From assembly GCA_900617105.1 (NCBI GenBank), contig UYFQ01000392.1:1-43210 (forward strand): a stretch of 43,210 nt of DNA, written 5' to 3'. Every line of letters starts with the position of its first letter. Within the stretch, counting starts at the first letter, position 1. A program made the translations under genes and the position numbers. Shown one piece after another: positions 8,775 to 38,072 of this stretch. The notes beneath the pieces are model-generated. The model had not been told where the DNA came from, ran no database searches, and was given only the letters and a program-made list of their open reading frames with translations. This stretch comes from Hydrurus foetidus (lineage: Eukaryota).

Positions 8775-9164
8775 TCTTGGAATAAAACTGTCTTGTGGAT
8801 CCTGGATCCAGTCAGAGCACCTGGTTGATAGCAGTGATTCGTTTAGAACACACTTTGCTTTCAGCTAGTCGACCAAAGTCGCTCCAACAGCTCACTCAAG
8901 TGTAGGTATAATGGCACACAGCCATATAGTCTCTTTTAATTAGAAGTGCTCATCATGTCAAAACAAAGCAGTTCATGGCTAGCTATACTAGCTACAGTTG
9001 ACTGTTCACAGTCATCATCAGTTGCAACTTCAGTACAGTTCGAGTGATGGTCTTGGGTCTGAAAACGCTACCCTCGCTCCTCCGCTTGGGCTTAGATGAT
9101 ATTACCCCAAGGGATTTCCCCCAAGGGGATCGTCCCCATAGGGATAGCTATGCTATATCCAACA
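8775..9164 (-). repeat. Copia C 3' LTR, copy 1 (390 bp)
   Basis: Matches 24353-24744 and 37272-37663; on the minus strand it reads TGTTGG...CCAAGA, preceded by the PPT AGGGGTG. Confidence 0.95.
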
Positions 9165-9326
9165 CACCCCTAATGTCATAAGCATTCAGGCGGCATATTC
9201 GTATTTTTCATGGGAATGAAACATAAATCGTATTTGTATCTGCTGTAAGCTATAGTGATCATACAAGTATTGTTGCTAATAAAATTTTAAAAAATAGCTC
9301 AACTGTAAGTCAATAGTGTATACTAC

Positions 9327-12300: not shown

Positions 12301-14153
12301 AGAAATGTCCCAGCCCTCAAAGCAGAAATGAATTTCTGATCGGGTGGGAATCCTAAACTTGCTTGCAAACGTCGTGCATCGTCGCTTCTTTGAACTTCGC
12401 GTTTTGTGAAATTGGCTTCGTTTCCTGCCGTTGTTTCTAGCTTAGTAGAGTAAAATAAGTTGCTAGATGGTGTTTTCACCACTGCGGGATGTGCATATCC
12501 ATTTCTGCGCTCTGCGGCGTCAGAGTATCGCGGCTCTGGAGGCGTTGCCAAATCGCTGACATACAGCCCTCCACGGTGTTAAAATTTGTATGTATTCTGA
12601 TCAGTGTGAAGCAGAAATGCATCTTGATCTATTGTAGAACCCTGGCGAAACTCCCAGTTGTGTCCTTGCAACAGGCAATCCGATGCCGAGATGATGGAAA
12701 GTCCAGCTCGCGGATCAAAATGAACAATACCAATGTCTCGAAGAAGTCCTGCTTTAGTTACAGTAAGGGAACCATGCAAGCCTTTGAATACAGTTGGAGT
12801 GCATGTTGCAATGTCAGTCAGAACATCTGCACATGTAATGATGGTTCCAGTAGCTCCTGTGTCGAAGATGGCCTCCGAGGTACTTTGTTGGTTGATGTGT
12901 TGGTTTACGGAAAAATCAGTCCGAGGACCGAGGGTTGCGACTTCCACCGGTGGGGTGGTGGTGAGGCACACACTACAGTGCCTGTCGCCATACTGATTCT
13001 CGTTAACCTCTTGGTCCCACATTTGGCCAAAAGCTGTATACCGATTGTCGTCGTCGTTGGTGTCATCTTCGTCGGTTTGTCCAATGACCGAGTATGAAGT
13101 TTTTGGTGCTGAATCGGCCTCATCCGCAGCCTTCTTTCTGCACTCACTAGCACGGTGACCGACTTTCTTGCAATATTAGCAGGTTCCACTGAACTTGCCT
13201 TCCTTTGCTTCCTTAGCAAATTTCACTTTCGGCTCCTTAATCTTGTCAGCATCGATCTTTTTGGCCTTGTCTTTGGCAGGTGATTTTTCTCCCTTTGGGG
13301 GACCACCCTGTTTGCCGGGATTCTTCGCCGCCAGTGCCGTGTGGGGAGTCGCTATCGCTGATTGCAATGCGCTACCCTTCGCCCCTCGATGGAATCGGGT
13401 TGCTCCATTGATGGCCTCCACCAAAGTCTTCGGATAGATGTCGATAGCGGTGCACTCGAGGGAGTTGCTGAGGTAGTTTTTGTAGTCGTGGTAGACCTGC
13501 ACGGTGCTACTTAGACCGTCAATTAACCTCATGGCTTGTTGTTTTGCATCTGGAATTTGTGCTGTTGGTACTCCTGTCGCAGCAAGTCGGTCGAAAAGCT
13601 TGACTGCGCGCCGTCCGTACGTTACGATCTCTTCGCCCGTACTCATAGTGAGTGTATACCAGTCCCGTAGGGCCTGGGACCGCTCCAATTCCTGATTTCC
13701 GTCACATCTGGATGTGACTACTGACTTGATTACTGCAAGCAGTTCGAGTGGATCATCGAATTTGACAGCGGCGAATTTGGCATTCACTATCAAAATCGCG
13801 TTTAGCGATGGTGAACACATCGATCGGATCAGTCGATATGCCGATCGTCGGTCCTCCATTTGCTTCTTTTTCATCTTTGTCACGACTGCTCTCTCACTAT
13901 TCAAGTCTGCCATCATTAGCTTTGCTCGAAATCCCTTTGGGTCAGTAGTGTCGTCCAGAGCCTCGAGTTTTGCATAGTTGGGTTCTGCGAATTCGTAAAC
14001 CTCATACGCAGGTTTTATCGCCAACATCATGGGGTCAGGACAGATTGACTCGAGGTCTTGAAAGTTGACTCGCATGTACTCTTTCAGAATCTACATGTTG
14101 TCGTCCCATTCTTTCCAGACATTGTGGGCTATCTCAGGAAGATTCTCTGGCTT
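9327..14153 (-). pseudogene. gag-pol: Copia C copy 1 gag-pol, disrupted
   Basis: ORFs 13176-14075, 12579-13022, 11637-12551, 9617-11707 and 9327-9722; IFDTGA (PR), CDVMF/SDNE/IIERM (INT DDE), VYVDD (RT), SSTESE (RH). Two premature TAA and two frameshifts relative to copy 2. Confidence 0.92.
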
Positions 14154-14369
14154 TGTGACCCGCACAGCTGTACAGCTGTACGGGTACCGGCGTACGTTCG
14201 GTTCAGATCGAGGACGATCCGAGCCATCCGATTCATGACTTGCCTATCTCTGTGTTTATCTGTAAGCTAACCACATCTTTAGCCAATAGCACCAGCACAA
14301 CAGCTGCCTTCCTCTTGCCCTCGCGTCCTGTCCCATCAGACCCACCGCAGAGCACATAGTTAGGCCACA
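14154..14369 (+). repeat. Gypsy D 5' LTR, copy 1 (216 bp)
   Basis: TGTGA...CCACA; matches 29726-29941 and 36939-37154; preceded by the TSD GCTT. Confidence 0.93.
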
Positions 14370-14918
14370 ATACTAGTTTTTGGACCAACTTGGTGCTCTT
14401 TTTAGAGACCAGTTCCAAAACGCGACCCAAAAACATCGCCACGACCCGTAAAACGGCGTGCAAACAAGCTAGTAACTTGGAAACAAGTGAAAACAACGTC
14501 GAAAGACACTACAAAGGCTACGTCTAATCGACAGCCTCTGAAACGCTTTAGTTAAAAAGCTCGAGTCGTCGATATTTTCGCGACAAAATCGTGACGGCTT
14601 CAAAACTCGAAGCCTAACGAAGCAAGTGGCTCTGAATCGAGCAAAAGCAAGTCCCATCGTTATAGAAACGAAAGCTGGCCCAAACGCCCGCAGTTTAGTT
14701 CCTTGAGAGGTTCAAACCGCCAGGCAACTTTTCGAGCGATATCCGACGAAATCGCGCGAAAGTAAACCAAGAAATACTCCCCAGTTGCTAGGATCCTCTG
14801 ATCCCACGCAATCATAGCTGCGGGACCACATCCTCAGCTCCATAGAGCGCCGCGTCCGAGTTCCGTCGCTGTCCAAGACCCCAAGATCCAGACGTTTCAA
14901 GCTCAAGACAAAAGTCCG

Positions 14919-17147
14919 ATGACAAGGGCCCAAATAAAGAAGAAAGCGGCTGCTAACGCAGCCGCCTCTGCTTCTTCAGCTCCAAGCGCTTCGCGCAGTG
15001 CTCCTCTCACTGAGAAGGAAAAGCACAAAGCGGAGCAGGCCCTTGTAAAGCAAAACATCGAGAAATCGATACAGGCTCTGGCCAAAGAAGCAATACATGT
15101 TTCGGCTACCCCAACTCGTCTTGAGGACGAACAAATTTTCTTCCAAAGCGTCATAGCAGCAACAAAAGAAATGCAAGCAGCTCACCAACTAGAGCTAGCA
15201 CAAATAGCTGCTGCACAAGCTGCCGCTGACGCTTTAGAACCCTCAAACGACGAGCTCCTCGGGTTGGCACCCGAGGAAGCCGAGGAAGCCGAGGGCAAGA
15301 CAGACTCTCCTCTCGATACCCGCGGGTACTTAAAAAGAGGGGGAGACAACTCGATACTCCCTCCGCGATTGAACCATCAGTCGACGGTAAAATCAAAACA
15401 AAACAGGCATCCGACACCGGCAAGGCTGACGCCGACGCCGAGTCAGAGCCGGAGGCTGACGCCGACGGTGATGACAATGCCAACAACAACGACGACGACA
15501 AACCCCCCGACGAGTCCGACGACGACAACGACAGTAACGTCGACGACGTTAACGACACGGGAGGCGATGGCGGCAACCCCGACAGCTCCTCCGACGAGTC
15601 CGACGCAAGTAGTGGCGACGGGGACGACGGAGAGGGTAACGTGGAAGATGACGGGGACGACAACAGCGACGACGATGAGGCGAAAGCTGAAGTCGAAGTC
15701 GAAGACGACGAGGAGGTCGAACCCGGAAAGTCTAAGCCCAAGGTCAAGAAGTCCCTTAAGATAAAACCCCTCGCCAAGAAAAAGTCCCCAAAGGCGGGTC
15801 CCAAACCCGCCCCAAAGGACAAAAAGGTGAAAACCAAAACCGATGCCAAATCCGGTAAAACACACCGCGCGCAAAAGGCGGAAAACTCGGAAGAGGATTC
15901 CCCTCCGCAACGCAAAGCGGGTTTGCAAACCTCCATCATCAACATGAAGGAGGCGTACTACCTCACTCGAGAAAAACTCCTCGATGACGCTGATAAAGCA
16001 GCAAGAGCGTTTTACGAACAAGCATACCGCCCTGGTATGTTAACCAGTTGGGAGATGCTAATCGAAATGGATGCCATCCAAACGATCCGCGACCAGTTGC
16101 TTTGATGCAAAAGCGAGACAAGTTACAACACCAAGACTTGTCTCGCCTGGCCAACGGTCGAAGGCAAAACGTTAACGCTAAAGAACATTGCAAATGATCT
16201 TAAAAAGATCTTTTACAAAAACAAGCGTACATCTTCCCATTACGACTTCGAAATGAAGTTAAAAAATTGCAAATTTCGCATCAGCTGGAAAGATCCTTCC
16301 GTTGAAGACAGAGCTCTCTCTGAGTTCCGTGACATCCTACTCGGATTCTGGACGTCATACGACAATATCGATGCCGACATGCAAAATGATATCTGTAAGG
16401 CCTTCTACAAGAAGCTGCCAAAGAACAACAAGTTCACAGACAATTTCATGGCAAAGACAAAACGTAAGACGAAAAAGACCGGGAAAGATACCATCTTCAA
16501 AATGCTCACGCGTCTTGTCGTCATGCTGGGCGAAGCACGCCAGATGATCAAAGACGCGGAGGACATGGGAGGTCTCGACTTCGTCTTCGAGTCAAAGCTC
16601 ACACCAACTGACCAAGACGACGCTGAGGTCGCACCTCACCGTGACAGCCACTCGGCTAACGCCTACAAGGCAATCCCAAAACGTCAGGTGGACCCTGAGT
16701 CGTCCGGCCTCAGCCGGGCGACCAACTTCTGTCACACCTGTGGCAAAAAGGGACACAACCGTTATGAATGCCAAAACCACATGAACCCTCACTGCAACCG
16801 TAGTCATCGCACTTGGTCGCAGTCTGAGGAGGCAAAGGACTTCAAACGGATTGGTCACGAAAACTTCGTACCCAATGTGTACATCAACGGGGAACTTACC
16901 CGGGACACCAACAATCCCGGGGCAGCCACCTACGTGTATCCATCTGACGACGTTGAGAACAACTTCTCTCCGCCAGGGAGAGCCCAAGACGACCGTCCGA
17001 CAAAGAAACAAAAGCTGGCCACCAACAACAACAACAAGTACAACAAGTACAAGAGCAATCCCACTCAACCGGATAGGGACAACGATCGTTCCAACACGAA
17101 CAAGTTGAGCTCCAACTACAAGGGAAAAAGTAAGTCAAAACTTGCTA
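14919..17147 (+). pseudogene. gag: Gypsy D copy 1 gag, disrupted
   Basis: ORFs 14919-15764, 15641-16105 and 16253-17152; CCHC knuckle CHTCGKKGHNRYEC; CGA>TGA at 16103-16105 versus copy 2. Confidence 0.85.
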
Positions 17148-17842: not shown

Positions 17843-18186
17843 TCTAGTAATATCAGTATTATGTAGACTAGATATTCCGTATGCGAATTGTGATGCTATT
17901 ATCTGTATTTCATATTTGAACCACACGTACGGTGTTGCACCAGAGCAGTACCGTACTACATACGATTGAACTAGATTAGCTACCTACTCTTTGAAACAAC
18001 TACCAACCGAACTCGATAACTACTGCGTTGCAGCAGTGCTAATTAACCCAATCTCGTAGCCGATACCAACTCTTCTCTTGCAAACGAATTGCGACGAGTA
18101 AAGAGCCCTCGGAGAGAGCAGTGGGGAGCTTGTGATCAGCCGTACTGGCACATATGTATGCCCTTGTGAGACCACTAATCACAACA
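17843..18186 (+). repeat. Copia B 5' LTR (344 bp; starts TC instead of TG)
   Basis: Matches 23810-24153; boundaries fixed by the TSD and LTR-LTR alignment. Confidence 0.95.
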
Positions 18187-18197
18187 TAATTAGCACT
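18187..18197 (+). promoter_or_regulatory. Copia B non-tRNA primer-binding site TAATTAGCACT, complementary to LTR 18035-18045 (putative self-primer)
   Basis: Abuts the LTR end; exact reverse complement of AGTGCTAATTA at 18035-18045. Confidence 0.8.
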
Positions 18198-19461: not shown

Positions 19462-22400
19462 GTCTTTTACGTGATTGTTTACATGATGACATAGATAGCG
19501 ATGTGAATAATAATGTGACTAGTGTTGTAGACAAAAATGTTAAACACGTACGCATATCTAATATTGTACAAATAAAATTTATAGATGACCAAGAATCCGT
19601 GATGGACCCCATAGCAGTAGATAGTAATGTATTTAGCATAGACATCACAGACAAACCTGATGCGTTTGGTGATGATCAATTGCTGCTTGATACATGCGCG
19701 GGCGAGTCTGTATTTAGAACTAGTACACTGTTCTATGACATTGTGCACGCCCCTACACCCATGGTAGTTAATGGAGTAAATAGTAGAGGAGAGCCAATGG
19801 TGATCACAGAGCGCGGAATGACGGACTTCGGACTAGTATACTATGACCCTAATTGAATAGCAAACATTCTATCCTTTGCAAATATGGTAAATAACTGTGA
19901 CTCGGTGAAATATATAAGTAAAGGAGATTTTTACAGTTTGCAAATTATAAAAGGAGGATGCTGTTATTACTTCAATAGGGATGTTAAAAGTAACATTTAC
20001 ATATGCGATTTGAATACAATGGTAAGTAAACCCAAACTTATGTTAGTTACGACTGTTAATGACAAGATGAAAAAGTACACAGTTAGGCATGTAAAACAGG
20101 CTGAGTTAGCTAGAGAGTATCAGAGTAAATTAGGTTACGTTAGTCCAGGTCAGTTAGTTAAGCTAATTGGACAAGGTAAACTAATTAATAGCAACATTAC
20201 AACACAAGACGTAGTTAGGTCTTTAGATATCTGGGGTCCTGACTTGGGCTCCCTAAAGGGCAAAACGCCAAGCCATCAGGCACAGGTGGAAGAAGAGCAG
20301 CCGTTGTTAGATAACATTCAAGATTTAAACCAGATAATGTACATAGACATAATGTTTGTAAACGGCAATCCATTTTTAATTGCTGTAGTAAAGCCATTAG
20401 AATATGTTATGGTGAATAAGTTAAATAATAGAGCCAACCTTACACTGTGGACTAGCCTAGAGAGTGACATTAGACATGTTACTAAGTATGGATTCAGACT
20501 AGACCTAGTTAGAGTTGATGGCGAAGGTGCGATCAATTCAGTATGGTTTGAAACCAAGCTAGCTAGTATAGGTACTGCATTAGATACGACAGGTGCAGGA
20601 GAGGCAGTCACAGTAGTTGAGCGTAAGATAAGGCAGATTAAAGAGAGAGTCAGAGCAGTTATTAACACATTACCTTTTAAGTTAACCGAAAAACTAGAAG
20701 GATGGTTAGTTAGATATGCTGTTAACCGTATAGTGTTGGTTCCGACTAGGAACACTGTTGACTATGTTAGCCCTAGGGAAAAACTATACGGTAGAAAAAT
20801 TAACGTAGATAAAGAACTGAAACATGGTTTTGGTGACTACGTTCAAGTACATTCTGATAACATTGATAACAGTAACAAAGCCAGAACTTCAGGTGCTATC
20901 GCTCTGATGAGTGCAGGCAACCTTGAGGGATCTTGGTATTACATGTTACTCAATAACGAACAGATAGTTAAACGTACAAAAGCCACATCATTACCCATGC
21001 CTGATGAAGTTATTTCTTACATTAATGGATTATCTGAAAAGAGAAACATTAACAAAAGTAATAATGCTAGTCAACCTATATTTGAACAGAATAAGCGTGT
21101 AATAGTTGATGATGGACTTGACTATGATGATGAAAATATATATAACAAAAATATGCGTAGATTCAGCCATGCAGTGACACCTAATACAGATGAAATGTAT
21201 AATGATTCATATGTCGATGAAATGAACGTACAGCATGATGCACCCGTTCCATACACAATGAACGACATAAACAATATTGATAACATACCCGATGTATCTG
21301 ACATGAATGATATGAGTGACATGAATAATCAAGATGATTATGACTACACACAGCTTAAAACTGATGACGTGAATATTGAAACAGTTGAGTATGACGATAC
21401 TTTGACTGAATATCATACACCTAATGTTGATGATGTGCACAATAAACATGAAGTACTTACACCATATCAACTATCCGATGTTACTGATGATACGTACGCT
21501 GTTGATGATGTACTTACTGATGCACTGCCTGAGATAGAACAGCCTGCTTTGAGACGTAGCGCTAGAAATCATCAACCAGGCAGATGGGTTCCTAGGAGAG
21601 GAAATTACACTATAAGATGTAGTGCTATGAATCATGTACCATCCACCAATTTTTCATATGCTTTCAACATGACCGTTAAAGATGGCATTGATAAGTTAGG
21701 CAATATTGCTGTAGATTCCATTAGAAAAGAAATGCAACAGATGTGTGAAAAAGATGTTTGGGAGGGAGTGTTGATCAGCTCTCTTAGCCAGACTCAAAGA
21801 AGTAACATCATAACTAGTAGCATGTTCTTAAAGGATAAGTATACGGCGGACGGTAATTTTGACAAGCTTAAGTCTAGATTAGTAGCAGGAGGCCACTTAC
21901 AAGACAGAGATATATATGACAATGGATCTTCACCAACTGTCAGTACTACTAGTGTGTTTATTGTTGCCTCAATTGCTGCCCATGAACGTAGATCGATTGC
22001 TACTATTGATTTTCCTGGTGCATTTTTGAATAGCGACATGCCTTTAGAGGGCACTCACACTGTGTATATGCGACTGAATAAATATTTAACTGGAGTGTTG
22101 ACATCAATTGATAAATCATATATTAAATATGTTAATGATAAAGGCACATGCATTGTTAAACTGAAAAAAGCTTTGTATGGGTGTGTAGAATCTGCTAAAT
22201 TATGGTATGATAAAATCTCACATGACTTATCATTACTAGGGTATACCGTTAACCCTTATGACATATGTGTATTTAACAGAACTGAATCAAATAATAAACA
22301 AACCACACTAATAATTCACGTTGATGACATGATGATCACATGTTTTGATGAAAAACATGTTGATTATGTTATTGACGAAATTGAAAAACTATACCCTGGT

Positions 22401-23280
22401 CTAACAAAACATCGAGGAAAAGTACTTAATTACATAGGTATGACGTTTAATTTTGGGATGGCGGGAAAGATTATTATAACCATGGAAGGATTCATCAAGG
22501 AGCTGCTAGAAGACTGTAAAGGAATTATAGGGGTGTCACCGACACCGGCTAAGACGGATTTATTTTCGGTTTCACCCGAAACTTCTAACCCATTGTTAAC
22601 CACTTCTGCGCGTGAATATTTTCACTCCATAACAGCCAAGTTGCTTTATCTCAGCAAAAGATCGAGGCCGGATATTCTAACGCCGGTAGCCTTCTTAACT
22701 AAGAGAGTAACCAAGCCCCAGACGGATGATATGAAAAAACTGGAACGTACCGTACAGTACATACGTGGTACTCGAGACTTAGGCCTCACCCTTACAATTG
22801 GCGATCCAATGACTGTCATCAGCTACATTGATGCATCATATGGGGTCCATCAAGACATGAAGAGCCACACCGAAAGCACCATCACCCTTGGCAAAGGATC
22901 CATCTATGCAAAAAGCTCCACTCAAAGACTTACCACCAAGTCGAGTACGGAGGCAGAGTTAGTGGGACTTAGCGATTCTGCGAATCAAGTACTATGGACC
23001 AGATACTTCATCATAGCTCAAGGATACACCAACAGACCAGCCATCATATTTCAAGACAATAAATCAACTATCCAACTGGGAGAAAACCAACGGGAGATCG
23101 AACAGCGAACGGACAAGACATATCGATATCCGGTACTTTTTTCTCACCGACCGGATAAAAGAAAACGAAATTAATGTGACCTATAAACCCACAAATGAGA
23201 TGTTAGCAGATATGCTGACAAAACCCCTTCAAGGCGAGCAGTTCAGAGCTCTTCGAAACTTACTACTCAACATCACCTGA
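19458..23280 (+). pseudogene. pol: Copia B copy 2 pol (PR-INT-RT-RH) in the -1 frame relative to gag
   Basis: Frame open from 19458 through ORF 19503-19856 (LLDTCAG protease), one in-frame TGA (19854-19856), then ORF 19884-23174 (YIDIMF/VDGEG/VVERK, IHVDD, YIDAS). Frameshift near 23080; natural stop 23278-23280. Confidence 0.92.
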
Positions 23281-23809
23281 GTATTCCACTCTGACATTTT
23301 TCTTCTACCTACGCTTTGCCAAAACCTTTCTACCACTTCGGCCAAAATCAACCCTATGTATTATATGAATCTGTTTTTATGAATCTGCAATTCCAACGAA
23401 CTCCTGCTGCCCTACAACATCAACCTCCAAGACCCGAACACTCAAGATACTTACACTCGAGCCTACACCACACATGGTCGAGATACATTAGCTGAAGACC
23501 CGTCATGACGAAGACTCCAGCACCAACATTCCTACAATAAACTATTACTAACCGCAAACTTTGCCAAACGCCAACTTCCTTCTATAACCGACAATTCCAA
23601 CAGCCAACTATTTCTAGCACCTGTAAATTCCTACCGCAAACTTCTACCAGAGATCGATTTTCAAGACACTGACGTAACATTCCGGAGCCATTGATGAAAC
23701 TTTATTTATGATTAATATTCAATGAAAATGTATGAATTGGTTTAACGCTTTTGAAATAATAATTGAATAAACCTGTTTGAATTGAATACGATAACACATC
23801 ATAGGGGTG

Positions 23810-24153
23810 TGTAGTAATATCAGTATTATGTAGACTAGATATTCCGTATGCGAATTGTGATGCTATTATCTGTATTTCATATTTGAACCACACGTACGGT
23901 GTTGCACCAGAGCAGTACCGTACTACATACGATTGAACTAGATTAGCTACCTACTCTTTGAAACAACTACCAACCGAACTCGATAACTACTGCGTTGCAG
24001 CAGTGCTAATTAACCCAATCTCGTAGCCGATACCAACTCTTCTCTTGCAAACGAATTGCGACGAGTAAAGAGCCCTCGGAGAGAGCAGTGGGGAGCTTGT
24101 GATCAGCCGTACTGGCACATACGTATGCCCTTGTGAGACCACTAATCACAACA
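23810..24153 (+). repeat. Copia B 3' LTR, copy 2 (344 bp)
   Basis: TGTAG...CAACA; PPT AGGGGTG at 23803-23809. Confidence 0.95.
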
Positions 24154-24233
24154 GGGGACCAGGAAGTTCAGTTTTCAATGTTGGACTATGGACCCTCTCT
24201 CCATCACCAACATCCAACATACAACATCTCAAC

Positions 24234-24352
24234 GAGCCCGTTCGATGAAAAATATTCCGCTAGAAATTAGATCCGGTTTCAGTGATTTGGGGTGAAATGG
24301 CTAGCTTCAGAAAATCTACTTTTCGGCCATTTCTGAAAAAATCTAGCGGATT
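24234..24352. mobile_element. MITE-like element, left part (continues at 37669-37730; ~181 bp reconstructed)
   Basis: 13-bp TIR GAGCCCGTTCGAT (24234-24246) is the reverse complement of ATCGAACGGGCTC (37718-37730); AAC on both outer flanks; split by copia C at the TSD GGATT. Confidence 0.6.
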
Positions 24353-24744
24353 TCTTGGAATAAAACTGTCTTGTGGATCCTAGATCCAGTCAGAGCACCT
24401 GGTTGATAGCAGCGATTCGTTTAGAACACACTTTGCTTTCAGCTAGTCGACCAAAGTTGCTCCAACAGCTCACTCAAGTGTAGGCATAATGGCACACAGC
24501 CATATAGTCTCTTTTAATTAGAAGTGCTCATCATGTCAAAACAAAGCAGTTCATGGCTAGCTATACTAGCTACAGTTGACTGTTCACAGTCATCATCAGT
24601 TGCAACTTCCAGTACAGTTCGAGTGATGGTCTTGAGTCTGAAAACGCTACCCTCGCTCCTCCGCTTGGGCTTAGATGATATTACCCCAAAGGGATTTCCC
24701 CCAAGGGGATCGTCCCCATAGGGATAGCTATGCTATATCCAACA
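24353..24744 (-). repeat. Copia C 3' LTR, copy 2 (392 bp)
   Basis: Matches 37272-37663. Confidence 0.95.
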
Positions 24745-24908
24745 CACCCCTAATGTCATAAGCATTCAGGCGGCATATTCGTATATTTTCATGGGAATGA
24801 AACATAAATCGTATTTGTATCTGCTGTAAGCTATAGTGATCACAACATGTATTGTTGCTAATAAAATTTTAAAAAATAGCTCAACTGTAAGTCAATAGTG
24901 TATACTAC

Positions 24909-27900
24909 TTAATTTCCCATAATTTTCTTCACCATCTTGGAAAAAACCGTTCCTTGTAGTGGGTTGGTGTAGTAATCGGATGTCATATCCTCAGTGGGCA
25001 CATAGATAATGTTTACGGCACCGATACGGATGTAGTCTGAGATCCAGAATTTCCGTACCTCAATAAACCGGGTGGTCTCTGCGGTAGACCGACCTTTGCT
25101 CAGCAACGCAATGCATGATTGGTTGTCTTGTTCCAGCCTCGCTGGGTGTTTCCCATGTCCTTGGTACGCAATAAACCCAGCAAGCCATAGTGGAATGTTC
25201 ATGCCGTCGGAAACTGCAATGATCTCGGACTCCGTACTTGACTTGGAATTGAGCCTCTGGACCTTGGAACTCGTAATAAAATATCCCACCCCCAATGTGA
25301 CACACATTCCTGAGGTTGACTTCATCATATCTCGGTTAGCAAATGCGGCATCAATTGATACTGTAACTGTCAGTGGTAATGTGCAACCGAGTCGTAGGTG
25401 CTTGTCTCTAGTAGCCCTCAGATAGCATATGAGCCTATCAAGTTTCTTTTCGTCTTCTGTTGTTGGTGCCTTTACACGTTTGCAAAGTTCACCTAACACT
25501 AATACGATATCCGGACGCGTTCGGTTCCCCAGGTATAGCGCTGTAGCGACGTCTGTATGGAAGGTTTTAGCGTCTTTCTCATTCAGGGATTTGCAGTCCA
25601 AGGTCCGCTCAAATAGGTGTGGGGCACCGGGTGACGATGGATTCCCAATGAGGTTCATACCTCGTTCGGCATGGCTTTTTTCCCTTGATGAGATCAGATC
25701 TTGAATCATTCCGATCTGTGTGACCTTTACAAATCCTTTCTCAGTGAAATCCCACGTGCAACCTAGGTACGGTACGACACGCTCTTGAGTGGTACGGAAT
25801 TGTCCGTACGTTTTCAGCAAAGTTTGCTCAAAATCCAAAACTGCTTTCTTGCCCACACACGTCATCATTAAGTCGTCTACGTAGACTAGGATAGTAAATT
25901 GGTTCCCTTTGACGTCCTTATTAAAGACGCAAATATCGCGCGGGTTGGCCGTAAACCCATTACGGCCAAGTGTTCCGGCTATTTCGTTATACCATAGTTT
26001 GGCGGACTTGATACATCCGTAAAGTGCTTTGTCCAGTCTCACCACTAACCCTCCATTGTGTCTTCGGTAGCACTTAAATGATTTGTCTTGTTTGATGATT
26101 GCGTCGGCCACATTCTTATCAATGAACATATGGAGGATTTTATCCGGTTTTTCCTTAGGCATATCGGCGTTGAGGTACGCGGACCCAACGTCCCCGACCA
26201 TAATGAAACGGTTTTCCGCAGCAGCAATCTGTGCAACTGTAAAGATGGAAGCTATAGTCGCTGTAGGTGACTCAACTTCATCTGCAGCGTAGTCTTCTCT
26301 AACTTGAGCACGCCCATCCACACAGAAACGTGCCTTGACCTTGTCGATCTGGCGATCACCATTCGAATTCAGTGTTGGGAGGTATTTCTCCACAACATTC
26401 ATGTTAGAACGCAGTATCTTCTGCTTCTGAGTAGGTGATAGCTGTTCCATGTGCACACCCGAAAATGTCCCCTTGGCAAGTAGTGATTTGACCTCTGACT
26501 CGATGGCTGTGGTAGCCTTGAACTGGGTACCCAGTTTCAGTGCCTGGGTAACTGTCATTAATGACCACTCACCCCTAATTCCTTCTTTCCACGTTGAAAT
26601 AGGTAGTTTTTGAGCTACTAAGTTGAGTCTGTCTGGTGGCTTTCGAATTCTCGTCGACTTCTCACGCATTTCAATGGGTGCACTGGGCACGTACGTACGC
26701 ACGGAGGTAGGTAGTGCCTCTAGTTGCTCCTCCAATACCGGTTCAAAATTAGTTTCTGGCCCGGATACTTCGTCAGTAGTGGAAATACTATTATTTTCAT
26801 CGATAGCTGATTCCATTTCACCCCGAATCTCCAATTGGTCTTGTGTAATTTGAGGTTCTATCACGGTATCAGGCGTGTCGGTTTCATCCCGGAACACCGG
26901 TTGTATGGGAGGTGGGTGTCGGAATTGGATCGTGGGTTCTGATTCTGAGGGTGTATCCATTGTTACCACATCATCATCGATATTTTCAGTGATGTCTCTA
27001 TCATGGAAAGTGAATATCGGTTCTTGCGATATGTGAATTTTATTCTTCGATGCCCACCCATTTATAGTGGTGGTGACGAGTGCAGGTATCGGTAGTACCA
27101 CGTAGTGGTTGGCCGATATGATGCTCCTTGTATCGATGCGCATGAAGGAATGAGTGCCTGTGCCATTCATCTTTGGTTCCAGGTATAGGCATCCGATGGT
27201 TCGTGGATCCATGTTGTTGCTAAGCACCCTTGCGGTGACTTGGCAGTATGAGCCGAAAGGCGGTCCAATATCTTTTTTCGTGTCGGCCTTCCTTCCAAAA
27301 AATGCTTCGAAGGGGGAGATCCTATCTGTTCTCGTTGATGAGGGAAACAGTAGAAGCTTCCTTCCTGAGCTTATGACGAGGTGAGGCATCAGTATATCTG
27401 GTAGGAGGTACAACGGATGGTCTCCTTCAGGTGCCTGATCATTCGCTCAATAATGTGATCATGTTGCCCTGGACCAACTGTAATGACCTCGACGCCCATG
27501 GCGTTCATGTCGTTGACAAGTGCCGCAATGCCTCTTTCATTATCGCTGGTAAATTTCACGATGGAAATGCGTCGGGACCCGATAGTTCCGAACATACGCT
27601 TGATGCTCTGTCGGAGCACCGGCGTTGTGAGATTCTCAATGCAGGCCACCAAAACAATGCCCAGTGAGTGAGTAATTGAAACTAGAAATGGGTGTCGATT
27701 TATGAACATGACATCACAATGCATGTGTTGATCGTCAATGTTGCGGGCCGTTGTAGATAGTTGTGGTGGTGGCATAGGCCTCAGCCTAATGGTGCGTCCT
27801 TTGAGCGAAGCAGTGCTTGCTCCCCAAATTGCTGTGGCACGTGCGATGTCTTCAGGTAAGATGTCGCAGTTGAGAAATGTCCCAGCCCTCAAAGCAGAAA

Positions 27901-29725
27901 TGAATTTCTGATCGGGTGGGAATCCTAAACTTGCTTGCAAACGTCGTGCATCGTCGCTTCTTTGAACTTCGCGTTTTGTGAAATTGGCTTCGTTTCCTGC
28001 CGTTGTTTCTAGCTTAGTAGAGTAAAATAAGTTGCTAGATGGTGTTTTCACCACTGCGGGATGTGCATATCCATTTCTGCGCTCTGCGGCGTCAGAGTAT
28101 CGCGGCTCTGGAGGCGTTGCCAAATCGCTGACATACAGCCCACCACGGTGTTGAAATTTGTATGTATTCTGATCAGTGTGAAGCAGAAATGCATCTTGAT
28201 CTATTGTAGAACCTTGGCGAAACTCCCAGTTGTGTCCTTGCAACAGGCAATCCGATGCCGAGATGATGGAAAGTCCAGCTCGCGGATCAAAATGAACAAT
28301 ACCAATGTCTCGAAGAAGTCCTGCTTTAGTTACAGTAAGGGAACCATGCAAGCCTTTGAATACAGTTGGAGTGCATGTTGCAATGTCAGTCAGAACATCT
28401 GCACATGTAATGATGGTTCCAGTAGCTCCTGTGTCGAAGATGGCCTCCGAGGTACTTTGTTGGTTGATGTGTTGGTTTGCGGAAAAATCAGTCCGAGGAC
28501 CGAGGGTTGCGACTTCCACCGGTGGGGTGGTGGTGAGGCACACACTACAGTGCCTGTCGCCATACTGATTCTCGTTAACCTCTTGGTCCCACATTTGGCC
28601 AAAAGCTGTATACCGATTGTCTTCGTCGTTGGTGTCATCTTCGTCGGTTTGTCCAATGACCGAGTATGAAGTTTTTGGTGCTGAATCGGCCTCATCCGCA
28701 GCCTTCTTTCTGCACTCACTAGCACGGTGACCGACTTTCTTGCAATAGTAGCAGGTTCCACTGAACTTGCCTTCCTTTGCTTCCTTAGCAAATTTCACTT
28801 TCGGCTCCTTAATCTTGTCAGCATCGATCTTTTTGGCCTTGTCTTTGGCAGGTGATTTTTCTCCCTTTGGGGGACCACCCTGTTTGCCGGGATTCTTCGC
28901 CGCCAGTGCCGTGTGGGGAGTCGCTATCGCTGATTGCAATGCGCTACCCTTCGCCCCTCGATGGAATCGGGTTGCTCCATTGATGGCCTCCACCAAAGTC
29001 TTCGGATAGATGTCGATAGCGGTGCACTCGAGGGAGTTGCTGAGGTAGTTTTTGTAGTCGTGGTAGACCTGCACGGTGCTACTTAGACCGTCAATTAACC
29101 TCATGGCTTGTTGTTTTGCATCTGGAATTTGTGCTGTTGGTACTCCTGTCGCAGCAAGTCGGTCGAAAAGCTTGACTGCGCGCCGTCCGTACGTTACGAT
29201 CTCTTCGCCCGTACTCATAGTGAGTGTATACCAGTCCCGTAGGGCCTGGGACCGCTCCAATTCCTGATTTCCGTCACATCTGGATGTGACTACTGACTTG
29301 ATTACTGCAAGCAGTTCGAGTGGATCATCGAATTTGACAGCGGCGAATTTGGCATTCACTATCAAAATCGCGTTTAGCGATGGTGAACACATCGATCGGA
29401 TCAGTCGATATGCCGATCGTCGGTCCTCCATTTGCTTCTTTTTCATCTTTGTCACGACTGCTCTCTCACTATTCAAGTCTGCCAACATTAGCTTTGCTCG
29501 AAATCCCTTTGGGTCAGTAGTGTCGTCCAGAGCCTCGAGTTTTGCATAGTTGGGTTCTGCGAATTCGTAAACCTCATACGCAGGTTTTATCGCCAACATC
29601 ATGGGGTCAGGACAGATTGACTCGAGGTCTTGAAAGTTGACTCGCATGTACTCTTTCAGAATCTACATGTTGTCGTCCCATTCTTTCCAGACATTGTGGG
29701 CTATCTCAGGAAGATTCTCTGGCTT
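24909..29725 (-). pseudogene. gag-pol: Copia C copy 2 gag-pol (single-ORF type); N-terminus displaced to 37159-37245 by D
   Basis: ORFs 27389-29647 (CYYCKKVGHRASEC, IFDTGA, INT) and 24909-27413 (RT VYVDD, RH). A 19-bp deletion near 27411 shifts the frame. Removing D rejoins MSQRGEK...DGVK|PENLPE... in frame, with one TAG. Confidence 0.92.
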
Positions 29726-29941
29726 TGTGACCCGCACAGCTGTACAGCTGTACGGGTACCGGCGTACGTTCGGTTCGGATCGAGGACGATCCGAGCCATC
29801 CGATTCATGACTTGCCTATCTCTGTGTTTATCTGTAAGCTAACCACATCTTTAGCCAACAGCACCAGCACAACAGCTGCCTTCCTCTTGCCCCCGCGCCC
29901 CGTTCCATCAGACCCACCGCCGAGCCCAGAGTTAGGCCATA
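29726..29941 (+). repeat. Gypsy D 5' LTR, copy 2 (216 bp)
   Basis: TGTGA...CCATA; matches 36939-37154. Confidence 0.95.
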
Positions 29942-30491
29942 ATACTAGTATTTGGACCAACTTGGTGCTCTTTTTAGAGACCAGTTCCAAAACGCGACCC
30001 AAAAACATCGCCACGACCCGTAAAACGGCGTGCAAACAAGCTAGTAACTTGGAAACAAGTGAAAACAACGTCGAAAGACACTACAAAGGCTACGTCTAAT
30101 CGACAGCCTCTGAAACGCTTTAGTTAAAAAGCTCGAGTCGTCGATATTTTCGCGACAAAATCGTGACGGCTTCAAAACTCGAAGCCTAACGAAGCAAGTA
30201 GCTCTGAATCGAGCAAAAGCAAGTCCCATCGTTATAGAAACGAAAGCTGGCCCAAACGCCCGCAGTTTAGTTCCTTGAGAGGTTCAAACCGCCAGGCAAC
30301 TTTTCGAGCGATTTCCGACGAAATCGCGCGAAAGTAAACCACCAAATAGCTCCATCAGTTGCTAGGATCCTCGATCCCACGACATCATAGCTGCGGGACC
30401 ACATCCTCAGCTCCATAGAGCGCCGCGTCCGAGTTCCGTCGCTGTCCAAGACCCCAAGATCCAGACGTTTCAAGCTCAAGACAAAAGTCCC

Positions 30492-33400
30492 ATGACAAGG
30501 GCCCAAATAAAGAAGAAAGCGGCTGCTAACGCAGCCGCCTCTGCTTCTTCAGCTCCAAGCGCTTCGCGCAGTGCTCCTCTCACTGAGAAGGAAAAGCACA
30601 AAGCGGAGCAGGCCCTTGTAAAGCAAAACATCGAGAAATCGATACAGGCTCTGGCCAAAGAAGCAATACATGTTTCGGCTACCCCAACTCGTCTTGAGGA
30701 CGAACAAATTTTCTTCCAAAGCGTCATAGCAGCAACAAAAGAAATGCAAGCAGCTCACAAACTAGAGCAAGCACAAATAGCTGCTGCACAAGCTGCTGCC
30801 GACGCTTTAGAACCCTCAAACGACGAGCTCCTCGGGTTGGCACCCGAGGAAGCCGAGGGCGAGACAGACTCTCCCCTCGATACCCGCGGGTACTTAAAAA
30901 GAGGGGAGAAACTCGATACTCCCTCCGCGACTGCAACAGATCTGTGCAGAGGACGATCTGTTCGAACCATCAGTCGACGCCAAAGTCAAAACAAAACAGG
31001 CATCCGACACCGGCAAGGCCGAGGCCGACGCCGAGTCAGATCCGGAGGCTGACGCCGACGGTGACGACAATGCCAACAACAACGACGACGACAAACCCCC
31101 GACGAGTCCGACGACGACAACGACAGTAACGTCGACGACGTTAACGACACGGGAGGCGATGGTGGCAACCCCGACAGCTCCTCCGACGAGTCCGACGCAA
31201 GTAGTGGCGACGGGGACGACGGAGAGGGTAACGGGGACGACGACGGGAACGACAACAGCGACGACGATGAGGCGAAAGCTGAAGTCGAAGTCGAAGACGA
31301 CGAGGAGGTCGAACCCGAAAAGTCTAAGCCCAAGGACAAGAAGTCCCTTAAGATAAAACCCCTCGCCAAGAAAAAGTCCCCAAAGGCGGGTCCCAAACCC
31401 GCCCCAAAGGACAAAAAGGTGAAAACCAAAACCGATGCCAAATCCGGTAAAACACACCGCGCGCAAAAGGCGGAAAACTCGGAAGAGGATTCCCCTCCAC
31501 AACGCAAAGCGGGTTTGCAAACCTCCATCATCAACATGAAGGAGGCGTACTACCTCACTCGAGAAAAACTCCTCGACGACGCTGATAAAGCAGCAAGAGC
31601 GTTTTACGAACAAGCATACCGCCCCGGTATGTTAACCAGTTGGGAAATGCTAATCGAAATGGATGCCATCCAAACGATCCGCGACCAGTTGCTTCGATGC
31701 AAAAGCGAGACAGGTTACAACACCAAGACTTGTCTCGCCTGGCCAACGGTCGAAGGCAAAACGTTAACGTTAAAGAACATTGCAAATGATCTTAAAAAGA
31801 TCTTTTACAAAAACAAGCGTACGTCTTCCCATTTCGACTTCGAAATGAAGTTAAAAATTGCAAATTCCGCATCAGCTGGAAAGATCCTTCCGTTGAAGAC
31901 AGAGCTCTCTCTGAGTTCCGTGACATCCTACTCGGATTCTGGACGTCATACGACAATATCGATGCCGACATGCAAAATGATATCTGTAAGGCCTTCTACA
32001 AGAAGCTGCCAAAGAACAACAAGTTTACAGACAATTTCATGGCAAAGACAAAACGTAAGACGAAAAAGACCGGGAAAGATACCATCTTCAAAATGCTCAC
32101 GCGTCTTGTCGTCATGCTGGGCGAAGCACGCCAGATGATCAAAGACGCGGAGGACATGGGAGGTCTCGACTTCGTCTTCGAGTCAAAGCTCACGCCAACC
32201 GACCAAGACGACGCTGAGGTCGCACCTCACCGTGACAGCCACTCGGCTAACGCCTACAAGGCAATCCCAAAACGTCAGGTGGACCCTGAGTCGTCCGGCC
32301 TCAGCCGGGCGACCAACTTCTGTCACACCTGTGGCAAAAAGGGACACAACCGTTATGAATGCCAAAACCACATGAACCCTCACTGCAACCGTAGTCATCG
32401 CACTTGGTCGCAGTCTGAGGAGGCAAAGGACTTCAAACGGATTGGTCACGAATTCTTCGTACCAAATGTGTACATCAACGGGGAACTTACCCGGGACACC
32501 AACAACCCCGGGGCAGCTACCTACGTGTATCCATCTGACGATGTTGAGAACAACTTCTCTCCTCCAGGGAGAGCCCAAGACGACCGTCCGACCAAGAAAC
32601 AAAAGCTGGCCACCAACAACAACAACAAGTACAACAAGTACAAGAGCAACCAGACTCAACCGGATAGGGACAACGATCGTTCCAACACGAACAAGTTGAG
32701 CTCCAACTACAAGGGAAAAAGTAAGTCACAACTTGCTAACCCAAGTACGGACATAATCGAGTACGCTCGAGAATTACCGTCAATGAAACAACTTCTATCA
32801 GCTGTATTAACTGAAAACATAGATGATTTCTTACAAGTTCACATATCTCTACCACAGATCCGATCGCCAACTTCAAACCAAGTCGCGACCGACCTGACGA
32901 TCGCAGGGACAACTCGCACCAGGCGGAGAGCAAGGAGGGGGACAGACATAAGTCTTCCTCTTCTTCCTCCTCCTCCAACCAATACGTGCCAAACTAGAGG
33001 CATGGAAGCCTTGGCCCAAATCGACACTGGATGTCAAGTCGGGGACGTCATCAACGGTAGAGTCCTTCGGGGCCTCCGTGGCGAAACCCACTTGAGGAAT
33101 TCCGACTCACCCATGTGGATGTGTAGTGGCTTAAATAATCAATGTGTAGAATCTACAAATGTGCTTGATATTGTTGTATCATTTAATAAAGACGATTTAA
33201 AACACACTTTTAGTCTTCCTGTCCGAATAGCTCCGGAGTCAAAAGTCGACCTAATCTTAGGATTACAGACTATAAAAAATTTAAATTTAGTAAAAATAAT
33301 ACCAGAGTTCTTCCAGAACCTCGATAAAATAACGCCTAGTGCGATACCAGCTTCACCGCTGAAGAAACAAAGGGTGTCGTTCTCGGCTGAGGACGATGCA

Positions 33401-36400
33401 CAAGTACCACACACGGTACTCATAGACACCGAACTACCCCCGAGGTAATATCAGCCGAATCAGCGTCAGCAGACACAATCCAAACGGAAATTCCTTTACC
33501 GTTACTAACGGAAAAGGACACTGTCCAAAAGGAAAGTAAAATAGCTGACCCAGGGTCCCCACTACCTCCTGGCATTTCTGTCATGGAGGGCATAAATCCC
33601 TCGACTACAGACTTTCCCCGGCAGGATAACCTGGTAGCTCGAGGTGCTTGTACACACAAGACTTGCAACTCTTCATGCGGGTGTTCTACAAGCTCAGCGA
33701 CGGCAGTTGCTCAGCTTGCTTCCGATGAGTCCATACTACGCACCACCAATTTGACAACACTAGTGTTGCCACTTCCGCGTCAGAATGGATCTGGTGTAAA
33801 AACCAAAAGGCGTAAGAGAGTAGCTACTCTTACACCCTCATCCATAACACCAACCGAAACGCGTGGTATTGCGGCAGCTCTACTTAGGGAGGAAGACGAA
33901 GACCTCCCTGAGGTTCGGTCTTTCCGTGATAAGGAAGGGATCGACTACAAGTCGAAGGATACCTTCGCTCCTTTTCAAGACAATCCAAACAACGATTCGA
34001 TGTACTTAATTGATTTAATACATATCGATGGTACACCAACTGAGATTGCCGAAATTAAAGCGATTTGCATAAAACACAAATCGCTTTTCAAAAACGAGCT
34101 GGGTCCAGAACCCGCTCGAATTCCTCCTTTTGATTTCAAAAAGGTAAACATACCTCAATGGAAACACTTCCGTAATCGGGGTGCTCCCAGAGTCGCTTCA
34201 ACGATGCGACAAGAGGAAATCAGGAAACAAATCGTAGCAATGCTCAAAAAGGGAATAATAAAACCATCAGATGCCTCATATTACTCCCAAGTAATACTTG
34301 CAAATAAACCAGACGGTTCACTCCGATTCTGCATAGATTACAGGAACCTCAATGAGGCAACCGAATCTGCAAGTTGGCCGATCCCAAATATAAAACAAAT
34401 GTTATACAGACTTGGCGCCCAACGGCCAAACGTATTCGGCGTAATCGACCTTACGGCCGGATACCACCAAGCCCCAATAACACTGGCGGCACAAGTATTT
34501 ACCGCATTTATAACATTTATGGGTATATACCAATTCACACGACTACCATTCGGTCCCAAGATGGCCCCATCATACTTTCAACAGATGATGGCGTCAATAG
34601 TACTACTTGGCCTTATATACAGCATCTGTGAAGTCTATTTAGACGACATCATCATATATGCTGATGGACACATCCAATTCTGTGAACGTTTAGAAACATT
34701 GTTTCAACGTCTAGAAGATAAAAACATTTCACTCAAAGCTGCAAAGCTAAGACTTAACGTCAAAGTAGTTGAATATGTTGGTAGACAAATATCTAAGGAA
34801 GGTATATCAATGAGCTCCAAAAAGATAACGGGTGTGACTGACTTTCCGATGCCAAGAAAGACAACTGAACTACGTTCGTTCCTCGGTCTCACCAATTACT
34901 TTAGGGATCATGTACCAAATCACTCAAATGTGGTAGCACCGCTACACAAAATGATAGATCACGCCGCCAAAAAGCAAACATTGCTTGTCTGGACAGACGA
35001 AGCGGCCGACGCGTTTACGTTAGTCAAAGATCTTATCTCCAAGAGTCCCTTATTATATTTCATCGACGATGTAGCACCTATTACCCTCATGACAGATGCG
35101 TCTGACTACGGTATAGGTGGTTATTTATATCAAGAAGTCGACGGAGTCAAACAACTCGTCGCTCTCGTAAGCAAATCTCTTACCAAGACCCAGTTGAAAT
35201 GGTCCGTAATACAAAAAGAGGCTTACGCCCTTTACTTTTGCTGTGACTATCTCGACGCCCTGCTACGAGATCGTAAGTTTACTATCCTGACCGATCACAA
35301 AAATCTTACTTTCCTGCACAAGGATAAAAATGAGATGGTCGGAAGATGGCGCTGTGCGCTACAGGAATTAGATTTTACGATAGGGTATATCCCTGGGAAA
35401 AATAATGAAGTCGCTGACGCAATGTCACGCCTATGTAAAAACAAGATGCCGAAACACATCATAACAGCAATCCTAACTTGCAAACCGCTTGCAGCGGAAA
35501 TATATGCATACTTAATGCGTGTCCACAACTCTACCGTTGGGCACGGAGGATTCAATCGCACTTTGCGAAACCTAAAAAAATAGGGAAAGTATGGGAAGGC
35601 ATGAGACACGATATAAGAGCATACATTAAACAATGCCCGTGTTGCCAAAAGATGTCTGCTGACAAACAAAAACCCGTCACCCATCGTTTCACAACATCAA
35701 CATATGCACCTATGGAATGCATAAACATAGACTTTATTGGTCCATTCCCGGATAAAGGATACATCCTTGTTATGGTAGACACCTTCACAAGGTTTGTCGA
35801 ACTATCAGCCACAACTGATAATACTGCAAAATCGGCCGTAACAGGCCTAATAGAACACATCGGTCGCTACGGAGCTCCCAAATTCCTGCGATCCGATAAC
35901 GGTCCCCATTTCGTAAACAAAATCCTCGAGGAATTTGTAAAAGTTGCCGGTACAACACACAACCTTATTCTACCATACTCTTCGCAAGAAAACTCGATAG
36001 TAGAGCGTATGAATAAGGAAATTAACCGACACATCACGGCATTTACATTTGACCGTGCAACTACGGAAAACTACCGAGAAATTTTACCATTCGTACAACG
36101 AATTATAAATACGACATTCAACGTACGGACACAGTCAACAGCAGCAAAGCTTATATACGGCAATGCTATTGACCTTGATGCCAACATCCTTCTCCCTCGA
36201 GATGAGATAAACTTAGACATGGCTCATGTCACCCATTCTACTGAGAAAATTATGCAGATGCAAGATGAACTCATCAGAATCACTGCTGAACTACTCAAAG
36301 AAGCGGACGAGAAACGAAAAGCAGGCGGTTCCACCGACTACACAACGTTCGAAATCGACTCGTTGGTACTGGTTACCCACCGCACATCAAAACCAACACG

Positions 36401-36788
36401 CATGCACACTTTATGGAAAGGTCCCATGCAAGTGGTCGCAAACGATCTCGACGAGTATACACTACTCGATCTTATTACCAACCGCGAAAAAAGATACCAT
36501 GTATCAAATATTAAACAATTTGAGTTTGACCCCACAAAGGTCAACCCAACCGATATCGCCCGACGAGATTATCTCGAATTCTTTATCGAAGATATCCTAG
36601 CAATGGAAGGGAACATCCGAGTGGTGGGAACATTAAAGTTTCACGTAAAGTGGCTAAATTATCCCCACGACAGAAACACTTGGGAACCGTGGAAAAACAT
36701 GCGTGACGCTGAAAAAGTCCACGAGTTCTTAATTGCTAAAAACCTAAAACACTTGATTCCAAGTAAATTTGCTGAAAATTATCGTTAA
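30492..36788 (+). pseudogene. gag-pol: Gypsy D gag-pol (Gag, PR, RT, RH, INT, chromodomain) with several frameshifts
   Basis: ORFs 30492-31052, 31419-32138, 31970-33448 (CCHC knuckle; QIDTG protease), 33583-35583 (RFCIDYRNLN, VYLDD, TDASDYG) and 35478-36788 (CPCC, IDFIGP/SDNG, WKGPM, VKWLNY...TWEP chromodomain). Confidence 0.93.
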
Positions 36789-36819
36789 CCGATATACAGT
36801 ATGAAACACATAGGTTTAT

Positions 36820-36835
36820 AAAAAAAAAAAAAAAA
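36820..36835 (+). repeat. A16 homopolymer in the D 3' UTR
   Basis: Seen directly. Confidence 0.8.
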
Positions 36836-36938
36836 CTCAATGTTCAACCTGAAATAGTAGTTATATGTTAGTATTTAAGCATAGATAAATTGTTCATGAA
36901 AAATTTAGTACACCTTTTTTTCGAGAGAGGGAGGCCAT

Positions 36939-37154
36939 TGTGACCCGCACAGCTGTACAGCTGTACGGGTACCGGCGTACGTTCGGTTCGGATCGAGGAC
37001 GATCCGAGCCATCCGATTCATGACTTGCCTATCTCTGTGTTTATCTGTAAGCTAACCACATCTTTAGCCAATAGCACCAGCACAACAGCTGCCTTCCTCT
37101 TGCCCCCGCGCCCCGTTCCATCAGACCCACCGCCGAGCCCAGAGTTAGGCCATA
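36939..37154 (+). repeat. Gypsy D 3' LTR (216 bp)
   Basis: Follows the PPT; matches 29726-29941. Confidence 0.95.
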
Positions 37155-37158
37155 GCTT

Positions 37159-37245
37159 CACGCCATCTCCGATCGTAGATTTTTCAGACTTTCCACCCTT
37201 CTCGGATCTCAGTTGGGCAGCGCCCTTCTCGCCTCGCTGGCTCAT
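37159..37245 (-). pseudogene. gag: Copia C gag N-terminal fragment (MSQRGEKGAAQLRSEKGGKSEKSTIGDGV)
   Basis: ATG 26 nt after the C 5' LTR; in frame with the rest of gag once D is removed. Confidence 0.8.
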
Positions 37246-37260
37246 TCTGAGCAGCTTGCG

Positions 37261-37271
37261 ACTTCTAATTA
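37261..37271 (-). promoter_or_regulatory. Copia C non-tRNA primer-binding site TAATTAGAAGT, complementary to LTR 37434-37444 (putative self-primer)
   Basis: Plus-strand ACTTCTAATTA (37261-37271) and TAATTAGAAGT (37434-37444) form a perfect 11-bp inverted repeat; the PBS abuts the LTR. Confidence 0.8.
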
Positions 37272-37663
37272 TCTTGGAATAAAACTGTCTTGTGGATCCT
37301 AGATCCAGTCAGAGCACCTGGTTGATAGCAGCGATTCGTTTAGAACACACTTTGCTTTCAGCAAGTCAACCAAAGTTGCTCCAACAGCTCACTCAAGTGT
37401 AGGCATAATGGCTCACAGCCATATAGTCTCTTTTAATTAGAAGTGCTCATCATGTCAAAACAAAGCAGTTCATGGCTAGCTATACTAGCTACAGTTGGCT
37501 GTTCACTGTCATCATCAGTTGCAACTTCCAGTACAGTTCGAGTGATGGTCTTGAGTCTGAAAACGCTACCCTCGCTCCTCCGCTTGGGCTTAGATGATAT
37601 TACCCCAAAGGGATTTCCCCCAAAAGGATCGTCCCCATAGGGATAGCTATGCTATATCCAACA
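37272..37663 (-). repeat. Copia C 5' LTR (392 bp)
   Basis: Matches 24353-24744; followed on the plus strand by the TSD GGATT. Confidence 0.95.
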
Positions 37664-37668
37664 GGATT

Positions 37669-37730
37669 TGACCGGCGCCAGCGACCTACTAGAAATTTGG
37701 CGGGGACCCGGAAAATTATCGAACGGGCTC
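37669..37730. mobile_element. MITE-like element, right part
   Basis: Ends in the TIR ATCGAACGGGCTC (37718-37730). Confidence 0.6.
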
Positions 37731-37733
37731 AAC

Positions 37734-38062
37734 TGTTGGAGTATCGGGAAAAGACACTGTAGTAGTTGTGAGTGTGTGTGCGTGGATCCCGACGGACAGC
37801 GGCGTGTACCCTTGGGGTAGTGGCCGGGACCCCGTTGGCTGTATAGTCTTCTCGGACTTTGTCCGTTCAAGATACTGTGCATTGACTGATGTGTGATTCG
37901 ATCTTGATGATTGTAAAGGACTGTGTTGCCGTCGTGTGGAGACAGCGACACAAGTTTAATTATCAAGTGATTAAACATACAGTCTTATTTCACGAGTCTT
38001 GGGTCCAAGTCACGAGTTACGCGGAGTTGCTATATCCACCGGATTAGCCGAAAGCCCCAACA
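37734..38062 (+). repeat. Copia E 5' LTR (329 bp)
   Basis: TGTTGG...CCAACA perfect 6-bp inverted termini; first 191 bp repeated at 43020-43210. Confidence 0.9.
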
Positions 38063-38072
38063 TAATTAAACT
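38063..38072 (+). promoter_or_regulatory. Copia E non-tRNA primer-binding site TAATTAAACT, complementary to LTR 37953-37962 (putative self-primer)
   Basis: Abuts the LTR end; exact reverse complement of AGTTTAATTA. Confidence 0.75.

Follow-up and report, generated by a model that had tools for sequence, protein, structure and literature searches.

The window analysed here, 43,210 nt of contig UYFQ01000392.1 from Hydrurus foetidus, contains a Ty1/copia retrotransposon, designated family C, in which the sequence adjoining the 5′ long terminal repeat (LTR) is complementary to a segment within that LTR. This arrangement raises the question of whether reverse transcription of the element is primed by the 5′ end of its own RNA. 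Self-priming has been demonstrated for Tf1 of Schizosaccharomyces pombe and proposed for the Tf1/sushi group of Ty3/gypsy chromoviruses (Tf1/Tf2, Tj1 and Tosmo). In Tf1, an 11-nt LTR segment complementary to the primer binding site (PBS) just past the 5′ LTR is cut off by RNase H (PMC7175516, PMC10085805, PMC4600332), and the mechanism is described in PMC7175516.

Structure of the family C element

Features of the family C element and its surroundings are as follows.

37663 to 24353, minus strand: full-length Ty1/copia element of family C
37272..37663, minus strand: 5′ LTR, 392 nt, TGTTG...CAAGA, 7 mismatches to the 3′ LTR
37156..37245, minus strand: start of gag, ATG at 37245 and the first 30 codons
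29726..37154, plus strand: chromodomain Ty3/gypsy element inside gag, LTRs TG...TA, 4-bp target duplication GCTT
24912..29721, minus strand: remainder of gag-pol (zinc knuckle, protease, integrase, RT, RNase H), frameshift near 27400
24353..24744, minus strand: 3′ LTR, with a purine tract just before it
8775..9164, minus strand: duplicate of the 3′ LTR, without a PBS, inside the segmental duplication 5016-17147 / 20574-32738

The whole element lies between two copies of AATCC, a 5-bp target duplication, and its LTRs are 98% alike, differing at 7 of 392 positions. Paired LTRs, a purine tract and a target duplication mark it as a Ty1/copia LTR retrotransposon, and the domain order is gag-protease-integrase-RT-RNase H, with a copia-type RT (Pfam matches to RVT_2 and the zinc knuckle). 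The integrase gave no Pfam match and was identified by motif and homology; the RNase H motifs are intact. An intact family member of 1639 aa, about 95% identical, is present in public data (P0130), and the gag frame opening at ATG 37245 matches its residues 1-30 at 97%. The copy in the window is inactive, as its gag is interrupted by the gypsy element and its pol carries the frameshift near 27400.

The inserted gypsy element (29726-37154) has a palindromic 10-mer after its LTR that is neither a TGG-type PBS nor an LTR complement. A 12.2-kb segmental duplication (5016-17147 and 20574-32738, 97.9% identity) takes in parts of three retroelements. Retroelements are densely packed, with gaps of 199 bp (24154-24352) and 70 bp (37664-37733) and the gaps contain no tRNA gene. 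Nothing in the window was recognised as a host gene, and searches of it with ARAGORN and Rfam found no tRNA gene or Rfam family.

Predicted primer arm and PBS of family C

37434..37444, minus strand: ACTTCTAATTA, the putative self-primer arm; transcription is predicted to start at 37444 (GC/A, the slash marking the start), judging by the initiator pattern of the clade
37261..37271, minus strand: PBS TAATTAGAAGT, directly adjoining the LTR end (offset 0); many other copies have C at its position 11 (37261)
37260..37260, minus strand: C base immediately past the PBS, a possible footprint of cap copying (clade test 9/13, post hoc)

An earlier note, made from the sequence alone, had described a PBS abutting the LTR and a perfect 11-nt complement within it, and this description holds: the PBS begins at the first base past the LTR end at 37272, and 37271-37261 pairs with 37444-37434 at 11 of 11 positions. 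The remaining measurements in that note agree with those made here. R+U5, given as about 173 nt, is 173 nt (37444-37272), the gag ATG at 37245 follows 26 nt past the LTR in a frame that matches the intact family member, and the initiator-like context GC/A is present at 37444. RNA folding, which the note had proposed as a check, places the arm/PBS helix in the minimum free energy structure with pair probabilities of 0.75-1.0, and the fold is stable (z -2.5). The motif is 82% A/T, and the A/T-rich duplexes are weak, at -10.1 kcal/mol in C and -6.5 kcal/mol in D (described below). When the LTR was shuffled with dinucleotides preserved, a complement of at least 11 nt at offsets 0-3 arose in 7 of 20,000 shuffles. 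The note had also counted the motif as intact in three C LTR copies. All three do carry the primer motif, but only one is accompanied by a PBS; the other two are the 3′ LTR (24744-24353) and its duplicate (9164-8775), which lack one, and the three copies do not amount to three independent observations.

Families A and D

Two further families in the window, A and D, share the layout of C, with an arm inside the LTR and a PBS next to it.

17843..18197, plus strand: family A, 5′ LTR 17843-18186, primer arm 18035-18045, PBS TAATTAGCACT 18187-18197, 11-nt pair
37734..38072, plus strand: family D, 5′ LTR 37734-38062, primer arm 37953-37962, PBS TAATTAAACT 38063-38072, 10-nt pair

The LTR end of D was set from its CAACA terminal repeat, since its 3′ LTR is cut by the end of the window. 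The observed lengths were reached in 8 of 20,000 shuffles for A (11 nt) and in 17 of 20,000 for D (10 nt). The PBSs of A, C and D all begin with TAATTA and differ in the last 4-5 bases, where the LTR arm has changed to match. The pol products of C and A are 31% identical. All three families are homologous and belong to a single copia lineage. The palindrome TAATTA opens the PBS in all three window families (at 18187, 37271 and 38063) and in 2 of 33 relatives, despite the separate positions of the three families in the tree described below.

Relatives in metagenomic contigs

A scan of metagenome contigs gave 543 confirmed loci in the part scanned, of which the best 78 (29-41% identity) were considered. 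Fifty-one of these were picked by hand for apparent sequence upstream of a gag frame, the gag positions also being chosen by hand. For each CAACA-like site that precedes gag, the upstream sequence was searched for the longest perfect complement.

A complement of at least 11 nt at offset 0 from the LTR end was found in 33 of the 51 relatives, and 33 also exceeded all 60 of their shuffles, the two sets differing by L009 and L010; for L010 (14 nt), the score comes from a candidate LTR end nearby. In the 33 positive relatives the pair is 11-19 nt long, most commonly 14, and R+U5 measures 70-216 nt. Their PBS sequences are all distinct, have 18% G+C, and in no case (0/33) begin with TGG. The control orientations (direct, complement-only and reverse-only) each gave 1 of 51, against 34 of 51 for the true complement, and 33 of those 34 have it beginning at offset 0.

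Among the other loci, L019 and L020 have a 16-nt complement at other LTR ends, and L002, L012, L034 and L069 have 9-10 nt at offset 0. Eight negatives (L003, L018, L026, L051, L055, L062, L070 and L075) seem, when inspected, to have no intact junction between 5′ LTR and gag. Three relatives that seem testable, L016, L021 and L025, failed the complement test.

In a tree of RT-RNase H (46 rows, quick search, no outgroup, with 6 short loci and the loci scored untestable left out), self-complementarity occurs on all major branches, the negatives are scattered tips, and C, A and D fall in different places. This spread points to a trait of the lineage as a whole rather than one that C acquired independently. 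The earlier note had regarded C as an independent second case, a view that the data do not support: A, C and D are homologous and the trait is found throughout the tree.

Three scans of viral contigs found no relatives. A scan of a genome collection gave one 2.8-kb internal fragment without an LTR (L079), a piece of a C-like element with 53% identity that lies within a bacterial genome bin and is probably eukaryotic contamination. One branch of relatives carries a conserved 100-aa ORF between the PBS and gag (L078 1599-1916 and L062 96-392, 49% identical), which was also seen by eye in L009, L015, L018 and L058. The product is predicted to form a coiled coil followed by a small beta domain that matches Pfam MS_channel_2nd.

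The arm as the probable 5′ end of the RNA

The arm starts at the A of a CA dinucleotide (13 relatives) or one base later (16) in 29 of the 33 positive relatives, where 3.9 were expected, and in 25 of the 29 a T stands at -2, ahead of the CA. CA is one of the common initiator dinucleotides (PMC7370879). Where the arm starts on the A (13 relatives), the PBS is followed by C in 9, and local composition would predict 3.4 (p about 0.001, in a post hoc test without correction for kinship). Family C likewise has a C after its PBS, at 37260. No such excess was seen in the 16 relatives with an arm one base past the A (4/16) or in window families A and D. In the preparation of transcription start site libraries, RT adds C opposite the cap (PMC7370879), and a C after the PBS is what copying of a capped primer would leave. 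Both the initiator and the C after the PBS are indirect signs; together they suggest that the LTR arm is likely to be the RNA 5′ end.

Variation among copies of C and D

Variation was taken from contigs of three public runs of one study. At PBS position 11 (37261), 7, 9 and 9 contigs of the three runs have C in place of T, and these account for about 77%, 58% and 68% of the summed depth there, depth not being equivalent to copy number. No compensating change at the partner position, 37444, is listed in the three runs with C at 37261. As the eleventh pair is broken in many copies and no change of its partner is listed, the duplex common to C copies is 10 bp. The first A is likewise unpaired in 16 of the 29 relatives, and a start at 37443 together with a cap-derived C would yield the same C variant at 37261. 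The 29 variant rows (28 places) in 301 nt include none within 37262-37271 or 37434-37444, a number too small to count as conservation. Some D contigs (3 in X3 and 2 in X4) have an extra T in the PBS, with which the pair would lengthen to 11 bp and reach the C/A. Two RNA-labelled runs, consisting of contigs, contain just 5-7% of the words and give evidence of neither expression nor a start site.

In X3 and X5, from one study, one contig each connects 37272 with 37434 on the opposite strand, and the two sides have the 11 letters in common at the junction. Such a junction may reflect an inversion at the repeat, or copying from a primer that carried additional upstream sequence.

Alternative explanations and the favoured reading

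A chance inverted repeat might be suspected in a motif that is 82% A/T, but 7 of 20,000 shuffles reach the C pair, and the complement is found in 34 of 51 relatives where each control orientation gives 1 of 51; this explanation was ruled out and its probability is negligible. The pair could instead be a structural element, concerned with RNA circularisation, packaging or control of translation, with another primer in use. The stability of the fold would suit such a role, and fungal GalEa copia elements have a conserved hairpin of unknown role at the PBS position (PMC5445492). However, all but one of the 34 loci with a complement have it at offset 0, the very point from which minus-strand synthesis has to start; it ends at an initiator motif, and no alternative primer site was found, none of the 33 PBSs starting with TGG. 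A purely structural role is thus unlikely.

Two other sources of primer were considered. The C arm fits the general anticodon-arm pattern, with UCU as anticodon, and priming of family C by the 5′ half of tRNA-Arg(UCU) would place the match at offset 2. FunCo1, whose PBS fits an internal part of tRNA-Lys (PMC5445492), provides a precedent. Across the lineage, however, the pattern is not enriched (5/36 against 3.1 expected, a level reached by 393 of 2000 shuffles), families A and D depart from it, the match to the tRNA would be shorter with the common variant at 37261, and the copy inside the LTR is left unexplained, all of which make this tRNA a very improbable primer. The primer could also be the element's own 5′ sequence acting in trans, from short capped transcripts or a dimer partner RNA, or be freed by a host nuclease rather than by the element's RNase H. 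Side helices of the Tf1 type were not detected, primer length varies from 10 to 19 nt, and the TAATTA start common to all three window families, against 2 of 33 relatives, could be a cut site set by the host or simply reflect kinship of host. Yet the fold forms readily in cis, the RNase H motifs are intact, and TAATTA, being palindromic and A/T-rich, may converge for other reasons; supply in trans or release by a host nuclease is distinctly unlikely.

Priming in cis by the element's own RNA 5′ end, in place of a tRNA and in the manner of Tf1, is on these comparisons very probably the mode used across the clade. For the Tf1-like self-priming that the earlier note proposed, comparison supports the central part, through the 33 of 51 relatives, the lack of a TGG start in any of their 33 PBSs and the initiator at the start of the arm, while the side helices that belong to the Tf1 structure were not detected.

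Comparison with known systems

The likeness to the Tf1/sushi group lies in a PBS immediately past the 5′ LTR that can pair with a short segment of the LTR. Unlike that group of Ty3/gypsy chromoviruses, family C is a Ty1/copia element (integrase before RT, RVT_2), and the predicted primer length across its lineage is 10-19 nt, compared with 11 nt in Tf1. The Tf1 "pretzel" consists of three duplexes, with helices on both sides of the PBS (PMC10085805). Such flanking helices were not detected in the C lineage, where they are not enriched (1/36 and 2/36 at p<=0.05) in a simple duplex test that may miss short helices.

Self-priming has also been predicted for the plant TAR Ty1/copia elements Houba, Osr-1 and Fourf, by a rule that calls for a complement of at least 10 bp starting 0-5 bp past the LTR (PMC6317226). 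The C lineage resembles them as copia elements in which self-priming is predicted by the same rule, but differs in its divergent RT (RVT_2, 64-77 bits), for which the nearest Atlas clusters are mostly labelled Bacillariophyta. Self-priming in the C lineage presumably had an origin separate from that in plant TAR.

Among Atlas look-alikes at 0.97, the commonest taxon is Bacillariophyta, the phylum being known for 3-9 members per cluster. The nearest clusters, on these few records, point to a lineage of the CoDi type. The diatom copia elements CoDiI and CoDiII (Maumus 2009, PMC2806351) are comparable in that the C lineage is divergent copia with diatom-labelled look-alikes, and an additional ORF precedes the polyprotein in some relatives. 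CoDi is a candidate affiliation for the C lineage, suggested by these look-alikes. The main text of the CoDi paper contains neither "tRNA" nor "priming", and hence describes no priming mode, though its supplements may list PBS data (PMC2806351). Fungal GalEa elements, with their Conserved Hairpin Site, are similar in lacking a tRNA PBS and in having a short palindromic A/T-rich motif directly past the 5′ LTR. However, the partner in GalEa is 12-41 bp downstream and its authors found no LTR complement (PMC5445492), whereas the partner in C is inside the LTR.

A proposed model for priming and its implications

The observed part of the proposed mechanism is complementarity at offset 0 from the LTR end, in C and across the lineage. 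Transcription would begin at the C/A initiator at 37444, or one base later, and the first 10-11 nt of the RNA are predicted to pair with the PBS, looping out 162 nt of R-U5. By analogy with Tf1 alone, the element's RNase H would then cut after the last paired base to leave a free 3′-OH, from which RT would extend the primer into U5 and produce minus-strand strong-stop DNA. Plus-strand synthesis would copy the primer, and sometimes the cap, such that every cycle would regenerate the PBS from the LTR. Rewriting of this kind would explain how the arms can drift freely in sequence and still match each other, and also the frequent C after the PBS.

In the literature searched, Tf1 is the one element with proven self-priming, and plant TAR elements are the only copia group for which it has been predicted, a prediction already in the literature (PMC6317226). 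Nothing was found on self-priming in stramenopiles, on tRNA-independent copia elements in algae or on self-priming in the C lineage, in searches that did not extend to the majority of subscription journals or of Repbase entries.

For this protist copia lineage, Tf1-like self-priming is a prediction that comparison of sequences strongly supports. A broader picture, which we offer tentatively and hold somewhat less probable than its opposite, is that a large and deeply divergent copia lineage of aquatic protists would be self-primed throughout, independently of Tf1/sushi and plant TAR. RT would copy the whole primer including the cap, each cycle rewriting the PBS from the LTR and leaving behind a genomic C derived from the cap. 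DNA alone would then suffice to read transcript starts, and priming without tRNA may be an old feature of Ty1/copia, not a late peculiarity.

Elements of the C lineage would escape LTR finders that require a tRNA PBS. A protist copia lineage that pairs the PBS with its own LTR through many unrelated sequences of 10-19 nt, apparently without the side helices of Tf1, offers a natural series for studying what RT and RNase H need in order to release a self-primer. The hypothesis that hairpin priming came before tRNA priming has been raised (PMC3601003), and self-priming in the C lineage would bear on whether it did.
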